From positions 2,688,001 to 2,752,000 of the forward strand of contig OZ242374.1 of the NCBI GenBank assembly GCA_965209055.1: a stretch of DNA of 64,000 bases, given 5' to 3'. Of the stretch, positions 1,418-52,630 are shown in pieces. The notes beneath the pieces are model-generated. The model made no database searches, was not told the origin of the DNA, and worked only from the letters and a program-made list of their open reading frames with translations. Position 1 is the first letter of the stretch. Each line of letters opens with the position of its first letter. The stretch comes from Acidobacteriota bacterium (GTDB taxonomy: Bacteria; Acidobacteriota; UBA6911; RPQK01; JAJDTT01). The translations under genes and the position numbers were made by a program.

Positions 1418-3898
1418 GTGGCAGCCTCCGGGCAGGGTTTGAGAAAAGGACTCCGATACGCGGCGTGGGCCCTGCTGGCCGTGGCGCTCGGGTCGTTCCT
1501 GACCTTCCACCATCTGGCGCGCCGGGCATTGCCCCAACTCGACGGAGTCCGCATTGTAACGGGCCTGCAACAGCCGGTTGAAATCGTACGCGACCGTTGG
1601 GGCGTCCCCCATATTTTCGCCGGCAGTGATACGGACGCCTATTTCGCCCTGGGCTACGTCCACGCCCAGGACCGCCTCTTCCAATTGGACCTGACCCGGC
1701 ACCTCAGCCAGGGACGTCTGGCGGAGCTGGTGGGTGAACCTGGGCTGGATCTGGATCTCCTCTTTCGGACCATCGACCTGCACGGCCCAACGCGCCGGAT
1801 GCTGCAGCGGGCCAGTGCGCCGGTTCGCGCGGCGGCCGGGGCGTATGTCCTCGGCATCAACGCCGCCGTCGCCGATCTGGATGGCGCACTCCCGCTGGAG
1901 TTCGCCCTTTTGCGCCATGAGTTCGAGCGGGCCGAGCCTGACGACTTCGTCGGGTTGATCGGGCTCATGACGTGGGGACTGAACCTCTCGTGGGATATGG
2001 ACCGCCGTTTCGAGCAACTGGCGGCACGCATGGGAGAGGAACGTGCGCGGGAACTTTTCCCCTTCATTCAGGGAGGGTCACCCGCGGTTCATCCGCGGTC
2101 CGGCACGACTGCGACGAAATCGCCGGCCCCGGAAACAGCGCAGGCAGTCGCGTGGCTCGACCGTCTCGGCGAGTTGATTTCGGGCGCTTCGAGTACCCCG
2201 TTTCCTTCACGGCTGTTTCCCATGCTCCATGGAAGTGGAGCCAGCAACAGCTGGGTGGTGTCACCCCGGCGCAGCACGACCGGCCACGCCATTCTGGCCA
2301 ACGATCCTCATTTGGGTTTTACCCTCCCGCCCATTTGGTACCAGGCGCATCTGCATGCTCCCGGATTCGACGTGGCCGGAGTGACGCTGCCCGGCCTGCC
2401 CCTGGTGGTGATCGGGCGAAACCGGGACATCGCCTGGGGTCTCACCAATGTGATGCAGGACGCGGCGGATTTCTTCGTGGAGAAGCTGGACCCGGTGCGG
2501 CCCGGCCGGGTCATGTACCGCGGCGAATGGGTGAAGCTGGAAAAAAGGGTGGAAACGATCCGGATCAAGGGTGGAGAATCGCGGATGCTGGAAGTGCTGT
2601 CCACACCGCACGGCCCGTTGGTCAATCACCTGCTTCCCGAGATTCAGAAGCCCGTCTCCTACCGCTGGACCCTGCAGGCAGCGGACCACGCCAATGAGGC
2701 GGAGGGCTTGTGGCTTCTGAACCGGGCCCGGAACTGGGAGGAGTTCCGCCGGTCCATGGCGTGGTTCGGCGCCGCGGCCCAGAACGTGGTCTACGCCGAC
2801 CGGGAAGGACACATCGGCATGCAGACCGTGGGAGCTTTTCCGCGCCTTGCAGGTCGAAACGACGGGCTCCGGTTCCGCGTAGGCTGGGATGGCAGCGAGG
2901 AGTGGGACGGTTTCCATCCCTTCGAAGAGAATCCGGTCAGTTTCGACCCGCCGCAGGGTTGGCTGGCCTCGGCCAACAATCCTACGGTCGAAGCGCCGGG
3001 ACCCTTCTACATCTCCGCTTATTGGGAGCCGGTGGACCGTATCAGCCGGATCCGGGAGGTTCTGGCCTCTCGGGGAAAACTCTCGGTGGAAGACATGGAA
3101 GGCCTCCAAGGAGATCTCCTGCTGATGTCGGCCCGTGAGATCGTCCCCCTTCTGTTGGAGGCATTCGATTCTTCACCACCCGCTACGGTCCCGGTGGGGA
3201 AGGCTCTCGAACTCATGCGCGGTTGGAACCACACCATGGAGGCCGGCCAAGCCGCTCCGACCCTGTTCGCAGTCTTCCACCGGCAATTGTTCGAGGAGAT
3301 CTTTCGGGACGATCTGGGGAAGGAACTGATCCAGGCGTTTCGGTCCCGCGGCAATCTTCCGGACATCATGGTTCGAACGGTGCTGAAGCGGGGAGCCGGG
3401 CGTTGGTTGGACCGGGCCGAAACGCCACGCGTCGAGGAGCTGCCGGACATTCTCCGGTCCGCCTTTCAGAAGGCCGTTGACCGCGTTTCGACTCGTTGGG
3501 GGCCGGAACCCAAGGATTGGGTCTGGGGAGATGTCCACACCCTGACTCTGCCCCATCCGGTGGGTGCGACCTCCTGGCTGTTGGGTGAGTACTTCAACCT
3601 GGGTCCCTTCCCGGTTCCCGGCTCCAACGCCACAGTCCGGAAGATGGAGTACCGGTCAGACGACTTCCGGGTCGTGTCCGGCGCCTCAGTGCGGCAGATC
3701 ACCGACTTTTCGAAGCCGGACCGAATTCTGTCGACGATCCCCGGCGGCCAGTCGGGAATCCCGGCCTCGCCCCACTACGACGACCTGCCGGACCTCTGGC
3801 TGACCGGGCAGTACCACACGATCCCCATGAACCGGGAAGCGATCCAGGTGAAGCACCGCCTGATCCTTCGTCCCGCGCCGCCGGATGCCCGTGAGTAG
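1418..3898 (+). CDS. Penicillin acylase family Ntn-hydrolase
   Basis: RDRWGVPHI, GYVHAQDRLFQ, catalytic SNSWVV, ANDPHL, GQSG...SPHYDD. Confidence 0.95.
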   Translation: MAASGQGLRKGLRYAAWALLAVALGSFLTFHHLARRALPQLDGVRIVTGLQQPVEIVRDRWGVPHIFAGSDTDAYFALGYVHAQDRLFQLDLTRHLSQGRLAELVGEPGLDLDLLFRTIDLHGPTRRMLQRASAPVRAAAGAYVLGINAAVADLDGALPLEFALLRHEFERAEPDDFVGLIGLMTWGLNLSWDMDRRFEQLAARMGEERARELFPFIQGGSPAVHPRSGTTATKSPAPETAQAVAWLDRLGELISGASSTPFPSRLFPMLHGSGASNSWVVSPRRSTTGHAILANDPHLGFTLPPIWYQAHLHAPGFDVAGVTLPGLPLVVIGRNRDIAWGLTNVMQDAADFFVEKLDPVRPGRVMYRGEWVKLEKRVETIRIKGGESRMLEVLSTPHGPLVNHLLPEIQKPVSYRWTLQAADHANEAEGLWLLNRARNWEEFRRSMAWFGAAAQNVVYADREGHIGMQTVGAFPRLAGRNDGLRFRVGWDGSEEWDGFHPFEENPVSFDPPQGWLASANNPTVEAPGPFYISAYWEPVDRISRIREVLASRGKLSVEDMEGLQGDLLLMSAREIVPLLLEAFDSSPPATVPVGKALELMRGWNHTMEAGQAAPTLFAVFHRQLFEEIFRDDLGKELIQAFRSRGNLPDIMVRTVLKRGAGRWLDRAETPRVEELPDILRSAFQKAVDRVSTRWGPEPKDWVWGDVHTLTLPHPVGATSWLLGEYFNLGPFPVPGSNATVRKMEYRSDDFRVVSGASVRQITDFSKPDRILSTIPGGQSGIPASPHYDDLPDLWLTGQYHTIPMNREAIQVKHRLILRPAPPDARE

Positions 3899-43842: not shown

Positions 43843-44388
43843 TCCGGGCTTTGCCGTCTGGGAAAAGCCCGAATTCCAATGGTCTGACATCGGCATCCCG
43901 CTTGTCTTGTCGGGTTGTGCACATACACTACAAACGAAATATGCAAGGAAAACGCGACCCGGATCCCAAAATGAACTTCCACCCCGGGCTGAGCTTCAGC
44001 CGGGACGAGTATTTGCGCCGGTACCGGCTGGTGATGGACGGAATCCGGAAGGCGGGCGTCGACGCCCTGCTGGTTCGGGGACCCGAGAACATCACCTACC
44101 TCACCGGCTACGAAACCCCCGGCTACTACGGTTACCACTGCCTGATCCTGGTTCCGGGAGAGTCTCCGGTCCTGGTCGGCCGGAGGTTGGAGGTCGGGAC
44201 CAACGTCCCCGAGTTCTCCTGGTTGACCGAGGTCGCTCCGGTGGAGGACGACGAGGTGCCGGTGGAGGTCACCATCCGGACTCTTTCCCGGATGGGCCTG
44301 GCGCGGAAGCGTCTGGGGATCGAATCGGAAGGGGATTATATACTGAATTTGATAGCCCTTGACCCTGCCTCAGCGCTGAGATAGGGTG

Positions 44389-44481
44389 GAGAAAACGTGG
44401 CCCGCAACCGTCGCCTGTTCCTACGGGGAAACGCTCTATCCAGCGCAGGAGTTAACGTACATCGAGGCGCCACGTTTTCTC
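44389..44481. ncRNA. Structured RNA hairpin family 1, copy A
   Basis: 13-bp closing stem GAGAAAACGTGGC/GCCACGTTTTCTC; shares CCGCAACCGTCGCC and GGAGTTAACGTAnATCGAGGC with 51302-51394. Confidence 0.55.
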
Positions 44482-44727
44482 GCTTTGTCCCCTCCTATTT
44501 GACCGCAAGGGCCAAAATCCGATAGGGTGGGAAGGACGGGACAGGCTGCAACACGATTGACGACCCTGCCCCTTCCGTATTGGGGAGGCGAGATCGTACT
44601 CGAAACCTGTGCCCGTCCTTCAAGCGACGGGGCGTGACATTCGAAACCCTGTCTGCCGACGTATCCAGCTCGTCGGCCCTATCCAGGGCAGAGTCGATAA
44701 ACACCGTAGCCCCGTCCCCTCAGGAAT

Positions 44728-44796
44728 GGGGAGCACAAACACCAAGGCTCACACTAACGCAATTAGGCTTGGAGCATCAGTCATTTAAGGCTCCCC
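44728..44796. ncRNA. Structured RNA hairpin family 2, copy A
   Basis: GGGGAG...CTCCCC closing stem; near-identical to 46526-46595 except in the apical region. Confidence 0.55.
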
Positions 44797-45064
44797 GTCC
44801 CTTCCCCGTGAGAACCTGAGCACGACCGAACCAGACCCCACACCTCGCGGGAACACTGGCGAGGACGACAATGACAACGACGAATCAGATTCTCACCACA
44901 GTTCTATAATACGCCCGCCACCTCAAACTTGTCACCCTTCCTCGCTATGCTACCGGACGAAGGGGTCGGGGTGCCTCATGGTGAGGCTGCAGTATTACAC
45001 TCGAAGTCAATCTTGAGGGATAGGATTTCGTGACTTGATGGCCTCGACCCCCTTCTGACTCGTC

Positions 45065-45268
45065 ATGCAAAAGGTCTACGACGAATCGGTCGGTTCGATG
45101 AGTGGGGAGAGATGCGACGTGCCGGGCCGTTATGAGTCGTGCTGTGCTCACCGGGAAGTCAAGTTGATTCGTCGGGGAGAGTTGTTTCCGATCTGTCATC
45201 GTTGTCGTCGGTCGCTGTTCTGGCGTCTCATTCAGAGGATCGACGATGGTCAGCGCAGCGAGAGTTAA
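45065..45268 (+). CDS. Small YjzC-like zinc-ribbon protein (start 45065 or 45098)
   Basis: SGERCDVPGRY-x-CC...RGELFPICHRC...W pattern. Confidence 0.55.
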   Translation: MQKVYDESVGSMSGERCDVPGRYESCCAHREVKLIRRGELFPICHRCRRSLFWRLIQRIDDGQRSES

Positions 45269-45296
45269 AATTGAATTTACTAAGGAGAAGTTAAAC

Positions 45297-45506
45297 ATGA
45301 AGGAAAATCCTGTTCGTCAGTATATTATTGTTCATGACTATGACATTAAGACTCAAGTTATAGCGGATGATCTGACTTATATTACCGATGATAATGATAT
45401 GATGACAGTAACACTCAAATTGAAAGGTGAAACGGTAGGGCATTTTACTAATGTTAAGAATTGGGTCCGGCAAGACCTGACGACCAATGTAGAAGACGAT
45501 ACTTAG
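45297..45506 (+). CDS. Small AT-rich hypothetical protein
   Basis: TAAGGAG RBS; 69 aa; beta-strand-like pattern. Confidence 0.6.
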   Translation: MKENPVRQYIIVHDYDIKTQVIADDLTYITDDNDMMTVTLKLKGETVGHFTNVKNWVRQDLTTNVEDDT

Positions 45507-45548
45507 TACTTGCCTTATCGTCCCTTGCTCAAATAGAATAAACGGCAA

Positions 45549-46109
45549 ATGATGAGCGAGGAATTTCACGAAGAGGATTTCCCTTCCATTGACGATGCTT
45601 ACAAGCTCGCTATGGAGTTCTACGCTTTCGCAATTCAACGGGCTGATGCACTAGACGCGAGAATTCAGTCTGTCATGTCCTTTTCTAGTGCAGTTACGTT
45701 TGCGCTTCCCTTAGCAATCCACAACCTCAGTTTGGACATAAATTCCAACTGGACCCTCGTCTTGGCCGCCTTGATTCTCATAGAGTTAGGTGTCTACTTG
45801 GCGGGCCGTTTCTTTGTGGGTTGGGGGAAATTGGAGGTACTGAGTCCTCTGAAGATTTACAATCAGCATCTACGAAAGGCCCCGGCCGAGTTCAAGAAGG
45901 ACATGATCTACTACGCCGGGCAGTCCTGGGACGAGAACAACCGAAAGATACTGACGCCACGCTGGCGACTAACAGTTACTCTTTCTTTGGTCTTGGCGAC
46001 GAAGGTACTGTTGTTCTTCGCGTGGGTGTTCTATCACTTCTCGTCTCCTCTGTCGGCCGGGGAGCCTGCGGAGGTGGCGGTGGTGGGGCTGAGTCTCCTT
46101 TTTTCATAG
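45549..46109 (+). CDS. 3-TM membrane protein with PycTM/DUF5706-like architecture
   Basis: N-terminal helix RADALDARIQ, TM1-TM2, soluble loop ending ENNRK...RWR, TM3. Confidence 0.6.
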   Translation: MMSEEFHEEDFPSIDDAYKLAMEFYAFAIQRADALDARIQSVMSFSSAVTFALPLAIHNLSLDINSNWTLVLAALILIELGVYLAGRFFVGWGKLEVLSPLKIYNQHLRKAPAEFKKDMIYYAGQSWDENNRKILTPRWRLTVTLSLVLATKVLLFFAWVFYHFSSPLSAGEPAEVAVVGLSLLFS

Positions 46110-46161
46110 CGACAAACCTAGCAGACTTCTGAGTAGTACGCAAGACAGTCTCTTACTTCCC

Positions 46162-46416
46162 TCATTGCTTCTTGACCACCTCAAATCCGAGTCGTTTGAT
46201 CAGAGGAACAGCCTCGTCTGGCGAGAAGTCGCGAGGATGTAGGCTCACTCTAGGGGCGCGTTTTATGGCCTCCGTCACGACATATTTCAACGGGTAGAGC
46301 CTGCGGCCTGATTTGATCCACCAAGCCTTGGCACCACGTATACGGGGCCAGGGCTCGTCTATCGCCTTCAACGCCTTTTCTACGTGATTCCTCTCGATCC
46401 CATCGAATTTGGCCAT
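46162..46416 (-). CDS. Stand-alone ScoMcrA-type N-terminal domain protein
   Basis: IERNHVEKAL...RLYPLKYVV..A...FSPDEA..L..LGFEV; GAGGAG RBS. Confidence 0.65.
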   Translation of the reverse strand: MAKFDGIERNHVEKALKAIDEPWPRIRGAKAWWIKSGRRLYPLKYVVTEAIKRAPRVSLHPRDFSPDEAVPLIKRLGFEVVKKQ

Positions 46417-46525
46417 CTTCAGCTCCTCTCAATTGGTAAGGCTACGCAGACCTCCGGCTAAGTCCATTTTCGAATGCTCAAAAATTAGTCGGAGTTTCTG
46501 CTAAGGTGGGGGGTGAGAAGAAGAC

Positions 46526-46595
46526 GGGGAGTACAAAAACCAAGGCTCACACTAACCACAATTAGACATGGAGCATCAGTCATTTAAGGCTCCCC
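46526..46595. ncRNA. Structured RNA hairpin family 2, copy B
   Basis: Shares ACCAAGGCTCACACTAAC and TGGAGCATCAGTCATTTAAGGCTCCCCG with copy A. Confidence 0.55.
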
Positions 46596-46736
46596 GCCTC
46601 TCAGAGAGCGCGCCCGATAACCATGCCAGCCCACAATCCAAAGCAAAGCTGGTGAGTGCTATTGAGGGGCGACGCCTCATCAACAACTTCATACTACGCC
46701 ACAGCACAACGAAAAAGCGACCCTTCGGCCATGGCC

Positions 46737-48029
46737 TCAAGGCTCTCGACAGGGACAATCTGACGGCGATACGACTTCAGATTCCCCGTTGTTGACTTCA
46801 ACCCAAGTACTCTCGTTCCCAACAAGATTCGGTTGGGCTGGGATCCTGCCGGTAAATCCTTCCTTACGTCTGTACCAGACATGATGGCGCCACCAGAGCG
46901 GAGTGTAAGAGACGTGCAATTCAACGCCCCGTTCCATGAGCGCATGGACGACAGACGCCGATTTTGCTTTGATAGTCTCCCCCGTCCAATCGCTACGGGA
47001 ATCCCGTTTGTAGTCGAGCTCGACGACCGCGACACAACCGAGTGGGCCTCCAGACTCGACATAATGCGTCTGGTGACTCATATAGTAGTCACTCTCTGAA
47101 TGAGAACCCACGGACATATCAGCAATATGCATGCCGTCTTCGACCCATGCGGGATTGCCATTCAGTTTTTGCTGAATGGCCATTTCCCAACCCTTCTCAG
47201 GTGTCGCTGGCGTGCCCCCGAAATAACAACCGTCGGTGCCATTGATCCCAGCTTTCAGACAAATGTCACGCCAATCGGCAGGAGGGCAGTTGCCTTCGCT
47301 AAGACTGGGCGGTCCGTCCCAGAATCGGGGCTCGGACGCCGCATGCCAACGGGCGTTCCCATGCTCAGGGGCAAACGCCTCGACGACTGCGACCTTATAT
47401 CCCCAGTGATGCTCGTCATCGTGCAGTTTGACCACCCATCGTCTGAACTGAGAGACGACCCGTTGTTGTCCATCTAATGGTGGAAGACTGCCCCCACGAA
47501 CGCCGAACAATGTCTCGACCTGGCCTATGAACCCGTAGAAGATTCTGGCGCAGTTCTCTGTCTTCACTACGTCATGGGGGGCAGCGATTGGCGCTTTCGT
47601 AGTCGTAACGTCTTCACACTCGACCTTTGTACGCCAGCCTCCCATGCCAGCTTGTACAACGTGTCTGCCAGGGTCCCAGGTCGTAACGAGTGGATCGGGG
47701 AATGGGATGTTTACAACCGCGAAAAAATGACCGTCGTCAGTACGCATGACACGCCACTGCTCGATCCCTGCGCAACGTTCCGTGCCATTCCTCAGAGTGC
47801 CAATCATGCCCTCCTCGAAGTAGTCGGGCAGTGCGAGAAAGCCCTCGCATTGGTACACGCCATGAGGCAACGGGCCGTAAGCCGTCTCGAAGGCAAACCC
47901 GTTTCCAATAAGACGATTGCCTTGCTGTTCCGTAGTCGTGGCGAGGGAAACGAACGATATGCCGGACGACTCACCCCCTATTCCCATCAATATCAGGAGC
48001 GAAATAAACGACACTCTCACGAATTTCAT
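46737..48029 (-). CDS. Secreted Cys/Trp-rich hypothetical protein
   Basis: Signal peptide, GGAGGAGG RBS, ATGA overlap with the upstream gene. Confidence 0.75.
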   Translation of the reverse strand: MKFVRVSFISLLILMGIGGESSGISFVSLATTTEQQGNRLIGNGFAFETAYGPLPHGVYQCEGFLALPDYFEEGMIGTLRNGTERCAGIEQWRVMRTDDGHFFAVVNIPFPDPLVTTWDPGRHVVQAGMGGWRTKVECEDVTTTKAPIAAPHDVVKTENCARIFYGFIGQVETLFGVRGGSLPPLDGQQRVVSQFRRWVVKLHDDEHHWGYKVAVVEAFAPEHGNARWHAASEPRFWDGPPSLSEGNCPPADWRDICLKAGINGTDGCYFGGTPATPEKGWEMAIQQKLNGNPAWVEDGMHIADMSVGSHSESDYYMSHQTHYVESGGPLGCVAVVELDYKRDSRSDWTGETIKAKSASVVHALMERGVELHVSYTPLWWRHHVWYRRKEGFTGRIPAQPNLVGNESTWVEVNNGESEVVSPSDCPCREP

Positions 48030-48505
48030 TCCCTCCTCCACTCCAACTCGTCAACCTGAGTCTCTAGGTTATTGATTTGCGATTTCAAACGGCGCATTCG
48101 CGCTTGTAATATCGAATTCTGAGCGCGGAGAAACTGCGCCGACTCGAACCCCGTCAGGAACTCCCGGAATTGATAATGACGCACGTCTTTGCCTGAGAAG
48201 TACGCTTTGACTGTGCGTAGGGTGTTTGCAGAGACGGCAAGGGCCGAGCCGTAGGCAATTCCGATTTCCTTGTCGTCAGAATCGAGAATCGTGAAGACAA
48301 CGGCGACAAGCGGCTGATTCCGTCCCCAGCGCCCGTTCTTTATCGTTCCTGTGATCGTGATTCCCGATTCATGGCGTTCGGGTTGATGGGCAATCAACTC
48401 CAAGTGATTTGGGCCACGGAATCCGAGGAAGACAAGCAAAAAGACAACGCCAAATCCAACTACGCTCGCCGAGATGAAAAGTGAGTGTAGTTTCAGCTTC
48501 TTCAT
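48026..48505 (-). CDS. Membrane-anchored FxLYD-like domain protein
   Basis: N-terminal TM, ITGTIKN...VVFTILDSDDKEIG, C-terminal coiled coil. Confidence 0.65.
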   Translation of the reverse strand: MKKLKLHSLFISASVVGFGVVFLLVFLGFRGPNHLELIAHQPERHESGITITGTIKNGRWGRNQPLVAVVFTILDSDDKEIGIAYGSALAVSANTLRTVKAYFSGKDVRHYQFREFLTGFESAQFLRAQNSILQARMRRLKSQINNLETQVDELEWRRE

Positions 48506-48704
48506 AGCGTCTCTTGAATAGGATTCGATTTTCTGGCAGGCTCAAAGAGTTGGGGGTGGGAAGAGGCCAGCCCCCCGAATTGTAACGGGACTGGCCGTAC
48601 CAGAACCCCCTTTCGTCCGGGCATCCGTAACGCTCGACGAATGGGGGCAGTCATTACCTGCTTCCCACAATTGAAATTACGATACGCCACACACCTTGAT
48701 TTTG

Positions 48705-49718
48705 TCATCCTGTCGTCAACGCCAGTAACTCTCTGAGCAATTCGACCAACCGACGAAGGCGCTTGGCGTCCTCTTGATCCTGAGTGTCGGGAATCTGTGC
48801 GATGCCATCCTCTGACGGTCTGTGCGTCTCGAACCAGCCCTGAAACTCGCGAAATAGAGAGACCGTCGTCTCGCCACAAGACGTGACTGCCGAGTCCCAC
48901 GCTGTTTGAAACGTATTTTCCTGCGTGAGAAGTACGTCCTTGTAGAAATTCTCGCCACACCGCTCTTCAACGAAGACCAGGAACAGCCAAGGCTGCCGAT
49001 ACACGCCCCCGAATGAGACCATGGGCGTCGTGCCGACTCCCCAGCAACAGGCGTAGGACTGGGGACGCTCCCCGTCGATTTTGTCCAAGAGCAATTCGAA
49101 CATCTCGTCCCTGTCCGGGCTGTCTCTCCAGCCGTACAGTTCAGCGCCTCCATCTAAGAACCAACTTGGAAATTGGTACGATTGAATGGTCTGCCCCCAT
49201 CCCAGCCGATCCACCATGATTCTGTCCCTCAATGTGTACTGAAGATGGTGGAAGGTTTCGTGCACCACGTTTTTGGCAACGACCGAGTCTGTGTCTTGGG
49301 CCTGTCCAAGTGCTGTCGGCAGGGTGTCGTTAGTCTCAATATGCTCGGTGATCGAACCTGTCGCCGGAAGTCCGATCCACGGGGCGTTGCCGCTGTAATG
49401 AATGGCCTCTCCGATGAGCGCGGTCCACACCGCGCCTGTTTCGTGTCGAAACGTCTCCCCAACGGGTACCAGGTAGATATCGAGTTGCGGCAAAATAATG
49501 GCGTACTCGTCTTCGGCCACTTCGAAGGTGTAGTCGGCCCATTCATGGACGAGTTCGAGGTCGGCCTCATACCGGTCCCGATAGAAGATCGTGTAGGCGT
49601 GCTCGTCGCTTGACGACTCAGACCATCCATCATCGAGTGACGACTGTGAAAATCCTGGAGAGGCGACGAGAATCGAGAGAAAAAGGATGCAGGTCAGGCG
49701 CTGTGCGAATTGAGTCAT
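48705..49718 (-). CDS. Secreted HExxH zinc metallopeptidase (MA/gluzincin-like)
   Basis: Signal peptide from MTQF; VVHETFHHLQ and PSWFLDGGAE. Confidence 0.8.
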   Translation of the reverse strand: MTQFAQRLTCILFLSILVASPGFSQSSLDDGWSESSSDEHAYTIFYRDRYEADLELVHEWADYTFEVAEDEYAIILPQLDIYLVPVGETFRHETGAVWTALIGEAIHYSGNAPWIGLPATGSITEHIETNDTLPTALGQAQDTDSVVAKNVVHETFHHLQYTLRDRIMVDRLGWGQTIQSYQFPSWFLDGGAELYGWRDSPDRDEMFELLLDKIDGERPQSYACCWGVGTTPMVSFGGVYRQPWLFLVFVEERCGENFYKDVLLTQENTFQTAWDSAVTSCGETTVSLFREFQGWFETHRPSEDGIAQIPDTQDQEDAKRLRRLVELLRELLALTTG

Positions 49719-49731
49719 GACAAATCCCCTC

Positions 49732-49800
49732 ATTGTGGTCGAGACGCGGGGGCTTGTCAACGTGGAATTTCTAATACGAAGTAATTCCTTCGTATTAGAA
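49732..49800 (-). promoter_or_regulatory. Sigma70 promoter of the peptidase gene plus upstream 13-bp perfect inverted repeat
   Basis: TTGACA(49755-60)-17-CACAAT(49732-37); TTCTAATACGAAG-6-CTTCGTATTAGAA (49769-49800). Confidence 0.65.
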
Positions 49801-49868
49801 TTCTCATGTGTTAGAATCTCCAACGATGCGCTCGGCTGATAGACTGTCGTACGTGATTGAAGAGAAGG

Positions 49869-49942
49869 CGGCCCCGGCCAGATTCGAACTGACGACCTCC
49901 GTGTTCGGCAAACCGGCGCTCTTTCCACTGAGCTACGGGGAC
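49869..49942 (-). tRNA. Atypical tRNA: Arg-like body, 18-nt anticodon arm (GCC with a bulged A, or 8-nt loop GCCG)
   Basis: GTCCCCG TA GCTC AGTGGAAA GAGC G CCGGT TTGCCGA AC(A)CGG AGGTC GTCAG TTCGAAT CTGGC CGGGGCC G; A20, G73; no encoded CCA. Confidence 0.75.
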
Positions 49943-49983
49943 CACCCCTATTCTATCACCGGTTGGGCGTAGAGTAAGAAAGG

Positions 49984-50069
49984 TGCCCGAGGCGGGATTC
50001 GAACCCGCAAACTCTTGGGGAGTCGCCGGTTTTCTAAACCGGAGCGTATACCAGTTCCGCCACTCGGGC
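49984..50069 (-). tRNA. tRNA with Leu body and Ser anticodon AGA (copy 2)
   Basis: GCCCGAG TG GCG GAACTGGTATA CGC T CCGGT TTAGAAA ACCGG [17-nt variable arm] GCGGG TTCGAAT CCCGC CTCGGGC A; anticodon at 50033-35. Confidence 0.93.
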
Positions 50070-50089
50070 ACTCGACAAGGAGTTTATGA

Positions 50090-50173
50090 TGCCCGAGGCG
50101 GGGATCGAACCCGCACGGCCATTCGGCCGGCAGATTTCTAGTCTGCTGTGTCTGCCGGTTTCACCACTCGGGC
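50090..50173 (-). tRNA. tRNA with Leu body and Ser anticodon AGA (copy 1)
   Basis: GCCCGAG TG GTG AAACCGGCAGA CAC A GCAGA CTAGAAA TCTGC CGGCCGAATGGCCGT GCGGG TTCGATC CCCGC CTCGGGC A; anticodon at 50137-39. Confidence 0.93.
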
Positions 50174-50186
50174 ATCTACTCCTGGG

Positions 50187-50195
50187 AGTCTAGCA
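50187..50195 (-). promoter_or_regulatory. Candidate extended -10 promoter for the tRNA array
   Basis: TG-C-TAGACT, 13 nt upstream of the first tRNA. Confidence 0.5.
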
Positions 50196-50196
50196 C

Positions 50197-50418
50197 ATGC
50201 CGAAACCCGTTGCTCTTCCACCACTTCCGCCTGGAACGACGATGGAGGATATCGCCCGATCGTTGTTTCGGAAATCTACGGGATCAGGACCTCGCGCCAG
50301 CGTCGAGCCCGTTATCGGCCGTCAAGTCTCGATACATGAGGCGACGTCCGACAACGGCCATAACGAGGAGTCTCATCTGATCGAGGGTGTCGAGATTACG
50401 GACGTTGTGCCGACTTGA
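50197..50418 (+). CDS. Small ORF antisense to and overlapping the transposase 3' end
   Basis: GGGAG RBS; Pro-rich N-terminus, then amphipathic TMEDIARSLF helix. Confidence 0.4.
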   Translation: MPKPVALPPLPPGTTMEDIARSLFRKSTGSGPRASVEPVIGRQVSIHEATSDNGHNEESHLIEGVEITDVVPT

Positions 50419-51279
50419 GAACTCCCTCACGTACCGTTCCAAGTGCTTCGGACTCATCTTGTGGAAGGTCCCCGTGTAGGACCGTTTCAGCATGGACCAG
50501 AAGGACTCGATCCCGTTGGTGTGAGCCTGCCCCCGGACATACTCCCCGACCGAATGTCTGACTGCCTCATGGTCGGGCAGCTTGAGGTAGATTCGAGAGT
50601 CGTCTGTGTAAGACTTCGCCCCGGGCTTCACGTGCTCCATAATGAACCGGGACAAGGTTTCACTCGTCACGTTCGAGACTCTCGTTGCCCGGACCTGATT
50701 TGAGGCACGATCCTTGATGCCAACGACCGCCGTCTTGCCGGTCGCTCCCCGTCCGTGCAGTTTGTCACGTTGCTTCTTGTGCATGTTGCGGCGCTTCCCT
50801 CCCAGGTAGACCTCGTCGATTTCGACTGGTCCTGAGAAGGGATCGGGATCACCAGAAAACGCCTCACGGAGCCGATGGGCGAGATGCCACGCCGATTTTT
50901 GAGTGATTCCCAGGTCTCGGTGCAGCTTCATTGACGAGACGCCCTTGAGGCTCGTCATCCACAGATACATGGCGTATGCCCATTTACGGAGGGGTAGTCG
51001 GGAACTCTCCAGAACGGACCCGACTCGGACGGAGAAGTACTTTTTGCAGCCACGACAGCGGTAGGGTTGAGGCTTGCCCGACTTGACCACGTAGGTGTCG
51101 CAGTCTCCGCATCGGGGGCAGGGACGATCCTCGGATTCCTGGCCGGGCACAGCATCGGGCCAGCGGACCGTCTCGAACCACTCGACGGCGGCTTGCTCGT
51201 CGGGGAACAGTTCGGAGAGTTGTAGCAGTGTGATTCCCTTACGATGCGATTTTCCAGGGGCTTTCTTCTTTGTACTCAT
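50284..51279 (-). CDS. IS1595 family DDE transposase
   Basis: Zn ribbon CPRC...CRGC, HTH KGVSSMKLHRDLGITQKSAW, VEIDE, YTDD, HTNGIESFWS. Confidence 0.97.
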   Translation of the reverse strand: MSTKKKAPGKSHRKGITLLQLSELFPDEQAAVEWFETVRWPDAVPGQESEDRPCPRCGDCDTYVVKSGKPQPYRCRGCKKYFSVRVGSVLESSRLPLRKWAYAMYLWMTSLKGVSSMKLHRDLGITQKSAWHLAHRLREAFSGDPDPFSGPVEIDEVYLGGKRRNMHKKQRDKLHGRGATGKTAVVGIKDRASNQVRATRVSNVTSETLSRFIMEHVKPGAKSYTDDSRIYLKLPDHEAVRHSVGEYVRGQAHTNGIESFWSMLKRSYTGTFHKMSPKHLERYVREFSSRHNVRNLDTLDQMRLLVMAVVGRRLMYRDLTADNGLDAGARS

Positions 51280-51301
51280 GACAGGAATTTGCTAAGGTGA
51301 G

Positions 51302-51394
51302 GAGAAGACGTGGGCCGCAACCGTCGCCCGTCTGGTTTCTTTCCAGCTGAGCTACAGACGGGAGTTAACGTAGATCGAGGCACCACGTCCTCTC
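51302..51394. ncRNA. Structured RNA hairpin family 1, copy B, in the transposase 5' leader
   Basis: 12-bp closing stem, internal CCCGTCTG/CAGACGGG stem, core conserved with copy A. Confidence 0.55.
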
Positions 51395-51670
51395 GATTCA
51401 TTGTACTCCAAAATGCGCTTGTGGTATAAGGAGAAACGGGAGGGCGTTCAATCCACCCTGCCCAGCCGCCCCGAGAGGGACGGCCCGGCGTGAGGGACAG
51501 GGTGAAACTTGGCGGCTCGCCGTTCAAGCCCTGGTCCTTGCTACGTGAACGTGCTCTACCACGGGGCCAGGGATCAAACTTGGCGCCCAGCCCTGTTCTG
51601 ACCAGACTGTCGAGGACTCTCGACTCGGGCCGGGACTGAAATGCGAACTCCCTGTATTTTCCCGGAAGTC

Positions 51671-51730
51671 TTGCTGGAACGTCAACCCCTCACGATGCGA
51701 CTTTCCAGGGGCTATCTTCTTTTTCTTCAT
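51671..51730 (-). pseudogene. Truncated second transposase N-terminus
   Basis: MKKKKIAPGKSHREGLTFQQ versus MSTKKKAPGKSHRKGITLLQ of the intact transposase. Confidence 0.75.
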
Positions 51731-51733
51731 GAC

Positions 51734-51777
51734 TTTCCTCACACCGGGAGTATACTAGGTTGTGAGGAAATTGTCAA
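51734..51777 (-). promoter_or_regulatory. Inward near-consensus sigma70 promoter in the right TIR with an RBS-occluding inverted repeat
   Basis: TTGACA(51772-77)-17-TATACT(51749-54); TTTCCTCACA/TGTGAGGAAA arms enclose the -10 and include the GAGGA RBS. Confidence 0.8.
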
Positions 51778-52630
51778 ATTCAGTATATAATCCCCAATCG
51801 GAAAGCTGGTTCCTGACGGTCAACGAGCACCAGGCCCTGGCCGGCGCGCTGCCTCATGCCACGCTGGTCGACTGCTCCAGCGTCATCGAGGAGGCGCGGA
51901 TGATCAAGTCGGCCGAGGAGGTGGATGTGATTCGCCAGGCGGTGGCCATCGCCGACCGGGCGTGTCTGGCTGGGATCCGGGCGACTCGACCGGGGACCAC
52001 CGAGGACCGGATCGCGGCGGCCGTCTACAAGGAATGGTGCGAGGCGGGAGCCGAGTACACCGGACTGCCCAACTTCATTGTTTCGGGGCCCCGGTCAGGC
52101 GCGTGCCATGCCACCTGGCGGGGCCGCCGGCTGGAGGACGACGACCACTGCTGCTTTGAAATCGCGGCCTCCAAGCATCGTTATTGCGGGGCCGTTTTCC
52201 GCATGGCCACGGTGGGCCGGGTGAATCCCCGGCTGCGCCGGCTTTCTGACGCGCAGAACCGGGCCATCCAGGAAGTGATCGACGCCATCCGGCCGGGGGC
52301 CGTTTCGGAAGAGGTGGACCAGGTCGGCCGGGACGTCATCGCCAAGGCGGGGTTCGGCAAGTGGCACGTGAGCCGGCTGGGCTATTCCATCGGCATCAAC
52401 TATCCCCCCGACTGGGGTGAGGGCCAGATCATCAGCATCCGGCAGGGGGAGAAGCGGCGCCTCCACGAGAACATGACCTTCCACCTGGTGGCCGGCGTCC
52501 TCATTCCCGGCGAGTTCGGCAGCGGGTCCAGCGCCTCGGTGCGCGTCACCGCCACCGGCTGCGAGGTGTTGACCTCGCTTCCACTCCAGCTTTACGAGAA
52601 CTGACCGGGGACGGAAATCTACGGCCGCCG

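Follow-up and report, generated by a model that had tools for sequence, protein, structure and literature searches.

Transposon-borne tRNAs with leucine-type bodies and the serine anticodon AGA: candidates for a mobile Ser(UCU)-to-Leu mistranslation system

Introduction

Which amino acid does a tRNA insert when its body and its anticodon point to different amino acids? The question is raised by two adjacent tRNA genes, here called tRNA-A and tRNA-B, in a 64,000-nucleotide stretch of DNA (the window; contig OZ242374.1 of assembly GCA_965209055.1, positions 2,688,001 to 2,752,000) from an Acidobacteriota bacterium (the host). Both genes combine the serine anticodon AGA with a body that resembles a leucine tRNA, and both lie inside a transposon of the IS1595 family. 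A first-pass annotation, made from the letters of the window, had proposed that they are charged with leucine and insert it at UCU codons. The present analysis confirms the transposon and supports the leucine character of the bodies. It also places the two genes in what is apparently a large family of leucine-scaffold tRNAs with switched anticodons, found beside IS1595 and IS1-like insertion sequences. Leucine insertion is the explanation that we tentatively prefer.

Natural tRNAs with a mismatch between body and anticodon are known from a few lineages (PMC5389517, PMC3333845, PMC4300185, PMC10404621). For Acidobacteria, allo-tRNAs and polycistrons of irregular tRNAs have been described (Mukai et al., Nucleic Acids Res 2017, PMC5389517), and the same source reports that allo-tRNAs are toxic when expressed in E. 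coli.

Results

The two AGA tRNAs have leucine-type bodies

Three tRNA genes were recovered by ARAGORN and by cmscan with the Rfam model RF00005, all with scores above the gathering score of 29 bits (Table 1). Their order on the minus strand is tRNA-B, tRNA-A and an irregular tRNA with the anticodon GCC. In the cmscan alignment, both AGA genes have a 7-bp acceptor stem (GCCCGAG/CUCGGGC), a 5-bp anticodon stem closed by a 7-nt loop (CUAGAAA in tRNA-B, UUAGAAA in tRNA-A), a long variable arm, a 5-bp T stem and A73 at the discriminator position. Their cores, with A14, A15 with U48, G18G19 and a 3-bp D stem, match the alignment of the host leucine tRNAs. AGA at positions 34-36 of two adjacent cloverleaves was thus borne out by both programs. 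The description of the cloverleaves as fully paired was nearly right, the fourth D-stem position being G.A or A.A, which leaves a 3-bp D stem, the same as in the host leucine tRNAs. In the model alignment, tRNA-A and tRNA-B are 68% identical. CCA is not encoded in tRNA-B, whereas the host's canonical tRNAs encode it. Assembly error in the AGA calls, raised earlier as a possible objection, is excluded by Logan contigs from three runs of one sample, which cover 44301-50472 with 0 differences; the sample is possibly the genome's own source, and the agreement is to that extent not independent.

Leucyl-tRNA synthetase (LeuRS) reads A73, which is its main determinant, together with A14, A15 with U48 and the layout of the D arm. 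The leucine-type features claimed by the first-pass annotation (A73, the GCCCGAG acceptor, A14, A15 with U48 and the 3-bp D stem) all stood up in the alignments. It had also stated that the G73 and the GG-start acceptor of tRNA-Ser are lacking, and this held against all four host serine tRNAs, each of which has a GGAG.. acceptor and G73. Where serine tRNAs have G73, a GG start and G15:C48, tRNA-A and tRNA-B show A73, a start with GC, and U48 together with A15; the long variable arm is present. The claim of a leucine-type variable arm stood for tRNA-B, in which two unpaired bases precede the T stem as judged by eye, and not for tRNA-A, the arm of which is ambiguous.

Covariance models were built from 9 leucine and 4 serine tRNA genes of the host only; the host has the full canonical set for both amino acids (Leu taa, caa, tag, cag and gag; Ser gct, tga, cga and gga). 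Both AGA genes scored higher with the Leu model than with the Ser model (Table 1), as had been predicted for a serine anticodon on a leucine body. For comparison, host serine tRNAs reached 33-51 bits with the Leu model, host leucine tRNAs 38-58 bits with the Ser model, and the host tRNA-Tyr 57.4 bits with the Leu and 70.3 bits with the Ser model. As judged by identity elements and host-derived model scores, the bodies of tRNA-A and tRNA-B are of the leucine type, tRNA-A less cleanly so. Leucine isoacceptors have NAG or YAA anticodons, and both genes have AGA; allo-tRNAs have a 12-bp acceptor branch in 8/4 or 9/3 form, and both genes have 7-bp acceptor and 5-bp T stems. They appear leucine-like in their predicted charging, yet not to be ordinary leucine isoacceptors.

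In the cmscan alignment, the third tRNA is irregular in its acceptor stem, where U2 faces C71 in a mismatch, and in its anticodon stem, from which an A bulges out; its discriminator base is G. Two other genomes have a counterpart each, placed downstream of an AGA tRNA at a distance of about 43 nt (L056, 595-671, and L064, 4600-4676). All three have a common (G/C)UCCCCG-type acceptor, and the counterparts have the anticodons AGC and ACC. They may represent a second scaffold with shifting, A34-containing anticodons.

The tRNAs are carried by an IS1595-family transposon that moved recently

The claim that the tRNAs are transposon-borne was verified by perfect 22-nt terminal inverted repeats, a target-site duplication (AATCGGAA), an empty site and an IS1595-family transposase (Table 1). 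A target duplication of 8 bp is typical of the IS1595 family. The GC content of the transposon is 53-59%, against 61-66% in the host flanks, and a full-length search matched only the element itself, which is therefore present as a single copy in the 6.08-Mb genome. It splits an M24 peptidase gene, the Creatinase_N and Peptidase_M24 fragments being halves of one gene. In contigs of two runs, X1 and X3, position 44322 is joined to 51796, with exactly 8 letters common to both sides, and the depths of the empty site and the transposon were 9 and 11 in X1, and 13 and 45 in X3. Run X5, with a small share, gave two short pieces only (157 and 40 nt). The uninterrupted allele coexists with the insertion, and the transposon therefore moved recently. 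In run X1, a second contig over window positions 43958-44144, with 11 differences in 187 nt and about half the depth, indicates a related strain in the same sample.

All three tRNAs are located inside the transposon, downstream of the transposase gene and on the same strand, beginning 110 nt past its stop codon. A promoter scan found no consensus promoter between the transposase gene and the tRNAs.

Related tRNAs carry many different anticodons

Relatives with the AGA anticodon were sought in one genome per species, for 185,579 species, by a Leu-type D arm and YUAGAAA at the right distance. This yielded 33 loci: ARAGORN called a tRNA(aga) over the match in 22, and 11 were not tRNAs. Record titles name metagenome-assembled genomes of the Acidobacteriota type, Alpha- and Gammaproteobacteria, Actinomycetota, Patescibacteria, Nitrospirota, Dehalococcoidia, Palauibacter, Planctomycetaceae, Bdellovibrionales and one Niallia isolate. 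A 36-tRNA array (L073) was set aside, which left 21 loci. A73 was found in 20 of these, and the Leu score exceeded the Ser score in 20, the exception being a 75-nt form without long arm (L059). A transposase was present within 3.5 kb in 6 of the 21, of the IS1595 family in L065, L066 and L072 and IS1-like in L042, L048 and L058.

A scan of metagenomes with the same scaffold was confined to anticodons with a middle base other than A, so that every true leucine anticodon was excluded. It gave at least 120 loci (median length 3 kb) with at least 122 matches, and at least 28 non-leucine anticodons among the matches listed. TTA was found in 31 of the at least 122 matches, TGG in 22, CGC in 15, GCC in 8, GTT in 6 and CTA in 4; GTC, CGA, TGA and CTC were found in 3 each, GTA, TCA, TGT, TTC, AGA and GCT in 2 each, and 12 others once each. 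Among the matches listed, this distribution is strongly skewed and not random, and position 73 is A in 103, G in 10, U in 4 and C in 3, two contigs being too short. The G73 cases are those of the anticodon GTT (5) and of serine anticodons (5), and therefore tRNAs whose cognate enzymes want G73 carry it. In the UUA class the scaffold must set the amino acid, because there is no synthetase cognate to an ochre anticodon.

In viral contigs, an anticodon-free scan (80 of 99 loci) gave mostly ordinary leucine tRNAs, together with the switched anticodons TTA (7), TGA (3), GCT (3), CTA (1) and AGA (1); a first viral scan had given one truncated fragment (L040). In a sample of 401 genomes from the host's phylum, five had such a tRNA: the host, and one genome each with AGA, TGC, TGA and TTA. 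Tandem pairs occur elsewhere, with CGA and TGG in L294 and with GAC and CGC on near-identical bodies in L259. The nearest relatives of tRNA-B bear TTA, TCA and TGG, and those of tRNA-A bear AGA. Judging from these comparisons, anticodons are often switched on the leucine scaffold, and the window unites two lineages that would both read UCU. Random anticodons in homologous elements had been named as a finding that would speak against a selected system, and the answer is mixed: at least 28 other anticodons, the low share of AGA among the metagenome matches and the mixed tandem pairs point that way, and the skewed distribution does not.

The family is linked to IS1595 and IS1-like insertion sequences

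Transposases were found at 42 of the at least 120 metagenome loci (IS1595 at 25, IS1-like at 18), and members of a family of small basic open reading frames (ORFs) at 10. Within ±1.5 kb, an IS1595 or IS1-like transposase was present at 40 of the at least 120 loci and at 0 of 30 ordinary leucine tRNA loci, a rough comparison, as the control came from the host's relatives and thus from another collection. The arrangement is recurrent. The tRNA is located upstream on the same strand in IS1-like elements and is convergent or flanking in IS1595 elements, often 30-300 nt from the transposase. Inverted repeats enclose the tRNA and the transposase in L213, L220 and L253, which are IS1-like, and in L306, an element of the IS1595 type of 2.3 kb, the ends of which resemble those of the window transposon.

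The first-pass annotation had suggested a search of IS1595 neighbourhoods. The three AGA relatives beside IS1595 transposases are named above; an AGA tRNA was present in 0 of 28 loci with IS1595 homologues (±1.5 kb, at most 66% identity) from the host's relatives. Starting from the IS1-like transposase, we found a tRNA at 6 of 20 loci and none at 14. Five of these six are short class-I tRNAs with a serine anticodon, which is GGA in four and GCU in the fifth; the host genome itself contains one of the five. The tRNAs found from the transposase side likewise show the canonical 7-nt loop. The only IS1-like transposase homologue of the host (L361, G000:C1:1814276-1818043) has a 73-nt class-I tRNA at 2998-3070 on the minus strand, about 0.7 kb away, with the serine anticodon GCU and C at the discriminator position; the four loci in other genomes of the phylum have 75-76-nt tRNAs with the anticodon GGA and U73.

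Further features were noted at such loci. A 3.5-kb IS1-like element in L220 (4056-7595) contains a UUA tRNA, a downstream coiled-coil ORF, a small basic ORF and a toxin of the PemK/MazF type, and similar coiled-coil ORFs follow the AGA tRNAs in L041, L043 and L066. The host's second IS1595 transposase (58% identical; L004, G000:C1:1718380-1722330) is adjoined by two odd tRNA-like genes. One, at 203-292 on the plus strand, is allo-like, with an 8/4- or 9/3-looking form, a long arm, the anticodon GAA and encoded CCA, and scored 35.8 bits as tRNA-Sec, 62.9 bits with the Ser model and 51.9 bits with the Leu model. The other is a tRNA of 72 nt (48 bits) at 1295-1366 on the minus strand; it immediately follows the transposase, and its anticodon loop is shortened. 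In L009 (G000:C1:4895441-4898785), four weak matches to a CRISPR repeat model at 1239-1473 (23.7-26.9 bits, below gathering) adjoin a truncated IS1595 transposase fragment and a tRNA-Ala(GGC). An IS1595 transposase homologue with two TGA codons in frame is present in many identical copies in the relatives G002 (at least 10 places), G005 (at least 5) and G007 (at least 5); the codons could be read through or recoded, or the element could still be spreading with a shared defect. Three of the host's six tRNA-Leu(UAA) genes lie in a repeat of about 4.2 kb (89-92% identical; C1 at about 477k, 1991k, which is L193, and 2524k) that encodes a tyrosine integrase and an ArdC/MPTase-PolyVal protein and has the appearance of a portion of integrative elements. 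Among the host's leucine codons, TTA is used least (0.36 per 1000).

Weighing leucine insertion against its alternatives

The explanation that we prefer, at somewhat less than even confidence, is that LeuRS charges the window tRNAs through their bodies and that such tRNAs are missense and nonsense suppressors carried by insertion sequences, here from Ser(UCU) to Leu. In this scheme, tRNA-A and tRNA-B would be transcribed from or behind the transposase gene, processed, given CCA and charged by the host LeuRS, which ignores the anticodon. They would compete with tRNA-Ser(GGA) and tRNA-Ser(UGA) for UCU, and possibly for UCC if unmodified A34 wobbles. The outcome would be a low level of Ser-to-Leu substitution, set by the transcription of the element's tRNAs. 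In the wider family, the same scaffold would insert leucine at UAA, UAG and various sense codons, so that its members would act as mobile nonsense and missense suppressors.

A number of points weigh against leucine insertion and are gathered in this section. Two of them concern the family alignment, in which 103 members from 100 hand-picked sources were aligned to the Leu model with most G73 cases left out, and for which the D arm, U33, A37-A38 and the T loop had been imposed by the scans and do not count as independent evidence. Within it, standard pairs fill 93.9% of the pair cells, compared with 67.4% after shuffling and about 40% when the partners were slid, and 22 of 26 pairs have changes on both sides. 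Pairing reaches 99.6% in the acceptor stem, 99.2% in the T stem and 95.1% in the anticodon stem, and 102 of the 103 members have U48. The scans left the acceptor and anticodon stems, U48 and A73 free, although the alignment itself was fitted to the model. Such strong compensatory change suggests selection on the structure of the family. It also makes decay a hardly credible explanation. Decaying pseudogenes, or hitch-hiking copies of leucine tRNAs with mutated anticodons and no function, would account for the lack of an encoded CCA, for the visibly irregular third tRNA and for the decayed members that do exist (L040, L059 and L369), but all stems are intact in tRNA-A and tRNA-B, the same anticodon is found on bodies only 68% identical, and the element has moved recently.

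Conserved structure need not mean decoding. The tRNA shape may serve the insertion sequence itself, as a site for RNase P/Z, a terminator, a stabiliser, a transposase promoter module or a charged tRNA that acts off the ribosome, and the anticodon would then matter little and switch freely. We regard this as somewhat improbable. The tight and recurrent linkage to transposases of two insertion sequence families in fixed arrangements, the tRNAs inside the ends of four further elements, and the multitude of anticodons, which differ even between near-identical tandem bodies, agree with it. So does the expected toxicity of several anticodons: CGC and GCC, which also tell against leucine insertion, would hit very common codons of GC-rich hosts and be highly toxic in leucine-charged decoders. 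Irregular acidobacterial tRNAs that are charged, yet unused in translation, are described in PMC5389517. A role apart from decoding is disfavoured by the near-invariant A73 and U48 and by the compensatory change in the anticodon stem, which go beyond what processing alone would seem to require, by the canonical 7-nt loops also found from the transposase side, by the skew of the anticodon distribution, and by the copies without tRNA, which are the majority (all 28 IS1595 loci and 14 of the 20 IS1-like loci).

Codon use bears on what the tRNAs may do. UCU was expected to be rare in the host and is, with 3.4 per 1000 codons and 5.9% of serine codons; in the transposon ORFs, TCT makes up 10-25% of serine codons, 2-4 times the host use. 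Self-recoding, in which the element would itself use TCT for leucine, failed: in alignments, the TCT codons stand opposite T/S/A, V/I and A in the window transposase, and the four of the HExxH cargo protein opposite EVVQ, VYIEL, ASITSSLS and SSDEEEEE. One hydrophobic TCT position in each of the two proteins was taken as chance. Of the TCT codons in AGA-adjacent transposases, 0 of 14 stand at conserved serine columns, versus 24 of 97 in control transposases. This fits UCU being unsafe beside AGA tRNAs, though the statistic is a weak one (p of about 0.02) and the sequences are related to one another. Over all serine codons, AGA-linked transposases show no enrichment of TCT (5 of 42, versus 60 of 534).

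Other anticodons are less favourable to leucine. Transposases adjacent to UGG tRNAs are enriched in CCA/CCG (71 of 91 proline codons, versus 20 of 38 in the UUA type, which has a similar background usage, and 129 of 298 in copies without tRNA), a signal that may be lineage inertia, as the ten UGG-type elements are related. These codons stand at proline-like, not leucine, positions, and the pattern would fit proline insertion or no decoding better than leucine insertion. An enrichment of threonine ACR codons in two UGU-type transposases was dismissed as a general A-ending bias. Beside UUA or CUA tRNAs, 21 of 23 transposases have no cognate in-frame stop inside, and in the remaining two (L205 and L264), stops occur close to where a partial match ends. 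All seven UUA-adjacent IS1595 transposases (L282, L240, L200, L251, L238, L205 and L289) end in TAA, with TGA as the next in-frame stop 12-60 codons on, while transposases beside other anticodons end in TAA in 7 cases and in TGA in 9. The read-through peptides past TAA are not clearly conserved.

Charging with serine, or with serine and leucine, would turn tRNA-A and tRNA-B into extra UCU decoders that aid an AT-richer cargo in a GC-rich host, in the manner proposed for phage tRNAs. We consider this unlikely, in spite of several agreeable facts. Seryl-tRNA synthetase (SerRS) recognises mainly the long variable arm. By eye, the variable arm of tRNA-A can be drawn either way, with one unpaired base in the serine style as a possibility, and its anticodon arm (CCGGU/ACCGG) is similar to that of the host tRNA-Ser(UGA); these likenesses belong among the points against leucine. 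TCT is enriched in the transposon ORFs, and the UGG-type case shows that codon matching between tRNA and transposase can occur. Yet A73 is present in both window tRNAs and in nearly all AGA relatives, while serine tRNAs caught by the scans have G73. The Ser-model scores of 50-56 bits are no better than those of true leucine tRNAs, TCT is neither enriched in AGA-linked transposases nor present at their conserved serine positions, and the host already has Ser(GGA) and Ser(UGA).

A defence role had also been suggested, in which leucine at UCU would poison AT-rich invaders more than the GC-rich host. The rarity of UCU in the host fits this idea, and engineered Ser-to-Leu swapped codes block phages and plasmids (PMC12269064). 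It found no support here and is very improbable: none of the 7 window ORFs examined with PADLOC gave a convincing match (one weak match to LmuA, E 0.005, 14 bits), the transposon's own genes are richest in TCT and would be hit hardest, the anticodons of the family are mostly not those of serine, and the carriers are insertion sequences, not defence islands.

Other contents of the transposon

Besides the tRNAs and the transposase gene, the transposon encodes several cargo proteins without a convincing Pfam, NCBIfam or PADLOC family (Table 1). The 342-aa protein with the HExxH motif matched no family in these three collections, and its VHExxHHxQ block is conserved in 19 distant homologues; a promoter-like site at 49760-49732 lies ahead of its ORF (promoter scan). 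In the "near" length class, with 5.8 billion proteins, the 434-aa protein matched only itself. Internal direct repeats, 87-94% identical, were seen at 44388-44485/51301-51398, 51236-51282/51687-51733 and 44728-44802/46526-46601. Together with a second transposase start, they suggest that the transposon arose by rearrangement of more than one insertion sequence copy. A direct repeat of about 100 nt near both transposon ends looked tRNA-like by eye and was rejected, as Rfam gave nothing at E up to 5.

Table 1. Features of the transposon and its insertion site (positions in the window)
Feature	Position	Strand	Evidence
tRNA-B, class II, anticodon AGA	50090..50173	-	ARAGORN tRNA(aga) 50088-50174; RF00005 51.3 bits; host Leu model 83.8 bits, host Ser model 49.9 bits
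tRNA-A, class II, anticodon AGA	49984..50069	-	ARAGORN tRNA(aga) 49982-50069; RF00005 55.4 bits; host Leu model 73.7 bits, host Ser model 56.2 bits
Third, irregular tRNA, anticodon GCC	49869..49942	-	ARAGORN tRNA-Gly(gcc) 49867-49942; RF00005 47.8 bits
Whole IS1595-family transposon, 7,465 bp	44331..51795		Inverted repeats, GC, self-only full-length match in genome
Left terminal inverted repeat, 22 nt	44331..44352		100% complementary to 51774-51795
Right terminal inverted repeat, 22 nt	51774..51795		100% complementary to 44331-44352
Target-site duplication AATCGGAA, left copy	44323..44330		Joint 44322->51796 in runs X1 and X3
Target-site duplication AATCGGAA, right copy	51796..51803		Joint 44322->51796 in runs X1 and X3
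IS1595-family transposase, 331 aa	50284..51279	-	DDE_Tnp_IS1595 3.9e-39; Zn_ribbon_IS1595 1.2e-06; NCBIfam transpos_IS1595 190.2 bits (cut-off 75)
Remnant of second transposase N terminus beside right end	51524..51742	-	Direct repeat 51236-51282/51687-51733, 87% identical; ORF translation
M24 peptidase gene, 5' part (Creatinase_N)	43851..44384	+	Pfam 5.8e-10
M24 peptidase gene, 3' part (Peptidase_M24)	51762..52604	+	Pfam 1.1e-34
Cargo ORF, 342 aa, HExxH motif, signal-peptide-like N terminus (by eye)	48705..49733	-	Translation; 19 homologues
Cargo ORF, 159 aa	48026..48505	-	Weak FxLYD-domain match below cut-off
Cargo ORF, 434 aa	46737..48041	-	Self-only match in the "near" length class; no family match
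Cargo ORF, 186 aa, hydrophobic	45549..46109	+	Translation; no family match

Discussion

Several known systems resemble the tRNAs described here. Allo-tRNAs are likewise natural bacterial tRNAs in which the anticodon mismatches the identity of the body, and their scaffold, too, belongs to a synthetase that takes no account of the anticodon; as described in PMC5389517, they have many anticodons including those for stop codons and occur in soil bacteria, close to genes of toxin-antitoxin systems or genes related to transposons. Allo-tRNAs differ by their 8/4 or 9/3 acceptor and T stems and by serine (or alanine) identity, whereas the tRNAs of the present family have a canonical 7/5 cloverleaf with leucine elements and are located inside defined IS1595 or IS1-like elements. 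The nev-tRNAs of nematodes are closer in amino acid, as these class-II tRNAs, whose variable arm is long, accept leucine in vitro and have the anticodons Gly CCC and Ile UAU, but they are eukaryotic, nuclear, lineage-restricted, not on mobile elements and limited to few anticodons according to their descriptions (PMC3333845, PMC4300185).

The tRNAProX of Streptomycetaceae (PMC10404621) are bacterial, naturally mistranslating and have A34 and non-cognate anticodons. They have proline identity, a dedicated ProRSx, A33 and an A15:A48 pair, and the account given of them there mentions no transposon link as far as it bears on these genes. The first-pass annotation had cited this precedent under a wrong label, as the threonine anticodon AGU belongs to tRNAProT and not to tRNAProA (PMC10404621). 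An engineered E. coli tRNA-Leu(CGA/UGA) is alike in that a leucine tRNA with a serine anticodon inserts leucine, LeuRS ignoring the anticodon; as that work presents it (PMC12269064), the code is synthetic, concerns UCA/UCG and operates in a host cleared of those codons, whereas the window case is natural, has the anticodon AGA and occurs in a host that still uses UCU. Phages and integrative elements also carry tRNAs as cargo on mobile DNA, but in these anticodon and identity match.

In the literature, we found no bacterial leucine-scaffold tRNAs with switched anticodons, with the reservation that the supplementary figures S5-S7 of PMC5389517 on irregular tRNAs lay outside the search and might hold similar ones. 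Nor did we find tRNA cargo on IS1595, IS1 or other DDE insertion sequences. The leucine-scaffold tRNAs with switched anticodons on insertion sequences of environmental bacteria apparently form a much larger, undescribed group.

A broader reading, which we consider possible though on the unlikely side, is that the IS1595 and IS1-like elements of soil and sediment bacteria are vehicles for diversifying code-altering tRNAs, a mobile layer of genetic-code ambiguity. Their cargo would comprise leucine-scaffold tRNAs with stop and sense anticodons as well as class-I irregular tRNAs with serine anticodons. Charging would follow the body and not the anticodon, UAA, UCU and other codons would be reread in the cell that the element enters, and the ambiguity would be used in conflicts between element and host or in the control of the element.

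If the tRNAs are unused in translation, they would be a new kind of structured RNA component of two insertion sequence families. If they are charged and used, transposons would carry nonsense and missense suppressors between phyla, and the reading of a codon would depend on the insertion sequences present in the cell. This would bear on how codon reassignment starts and on the fidelity of protein predictions from metagenomes, and the tRNAs would be natural counterparts of the engineered genetic firewalls in which serine and leucine are swapped.

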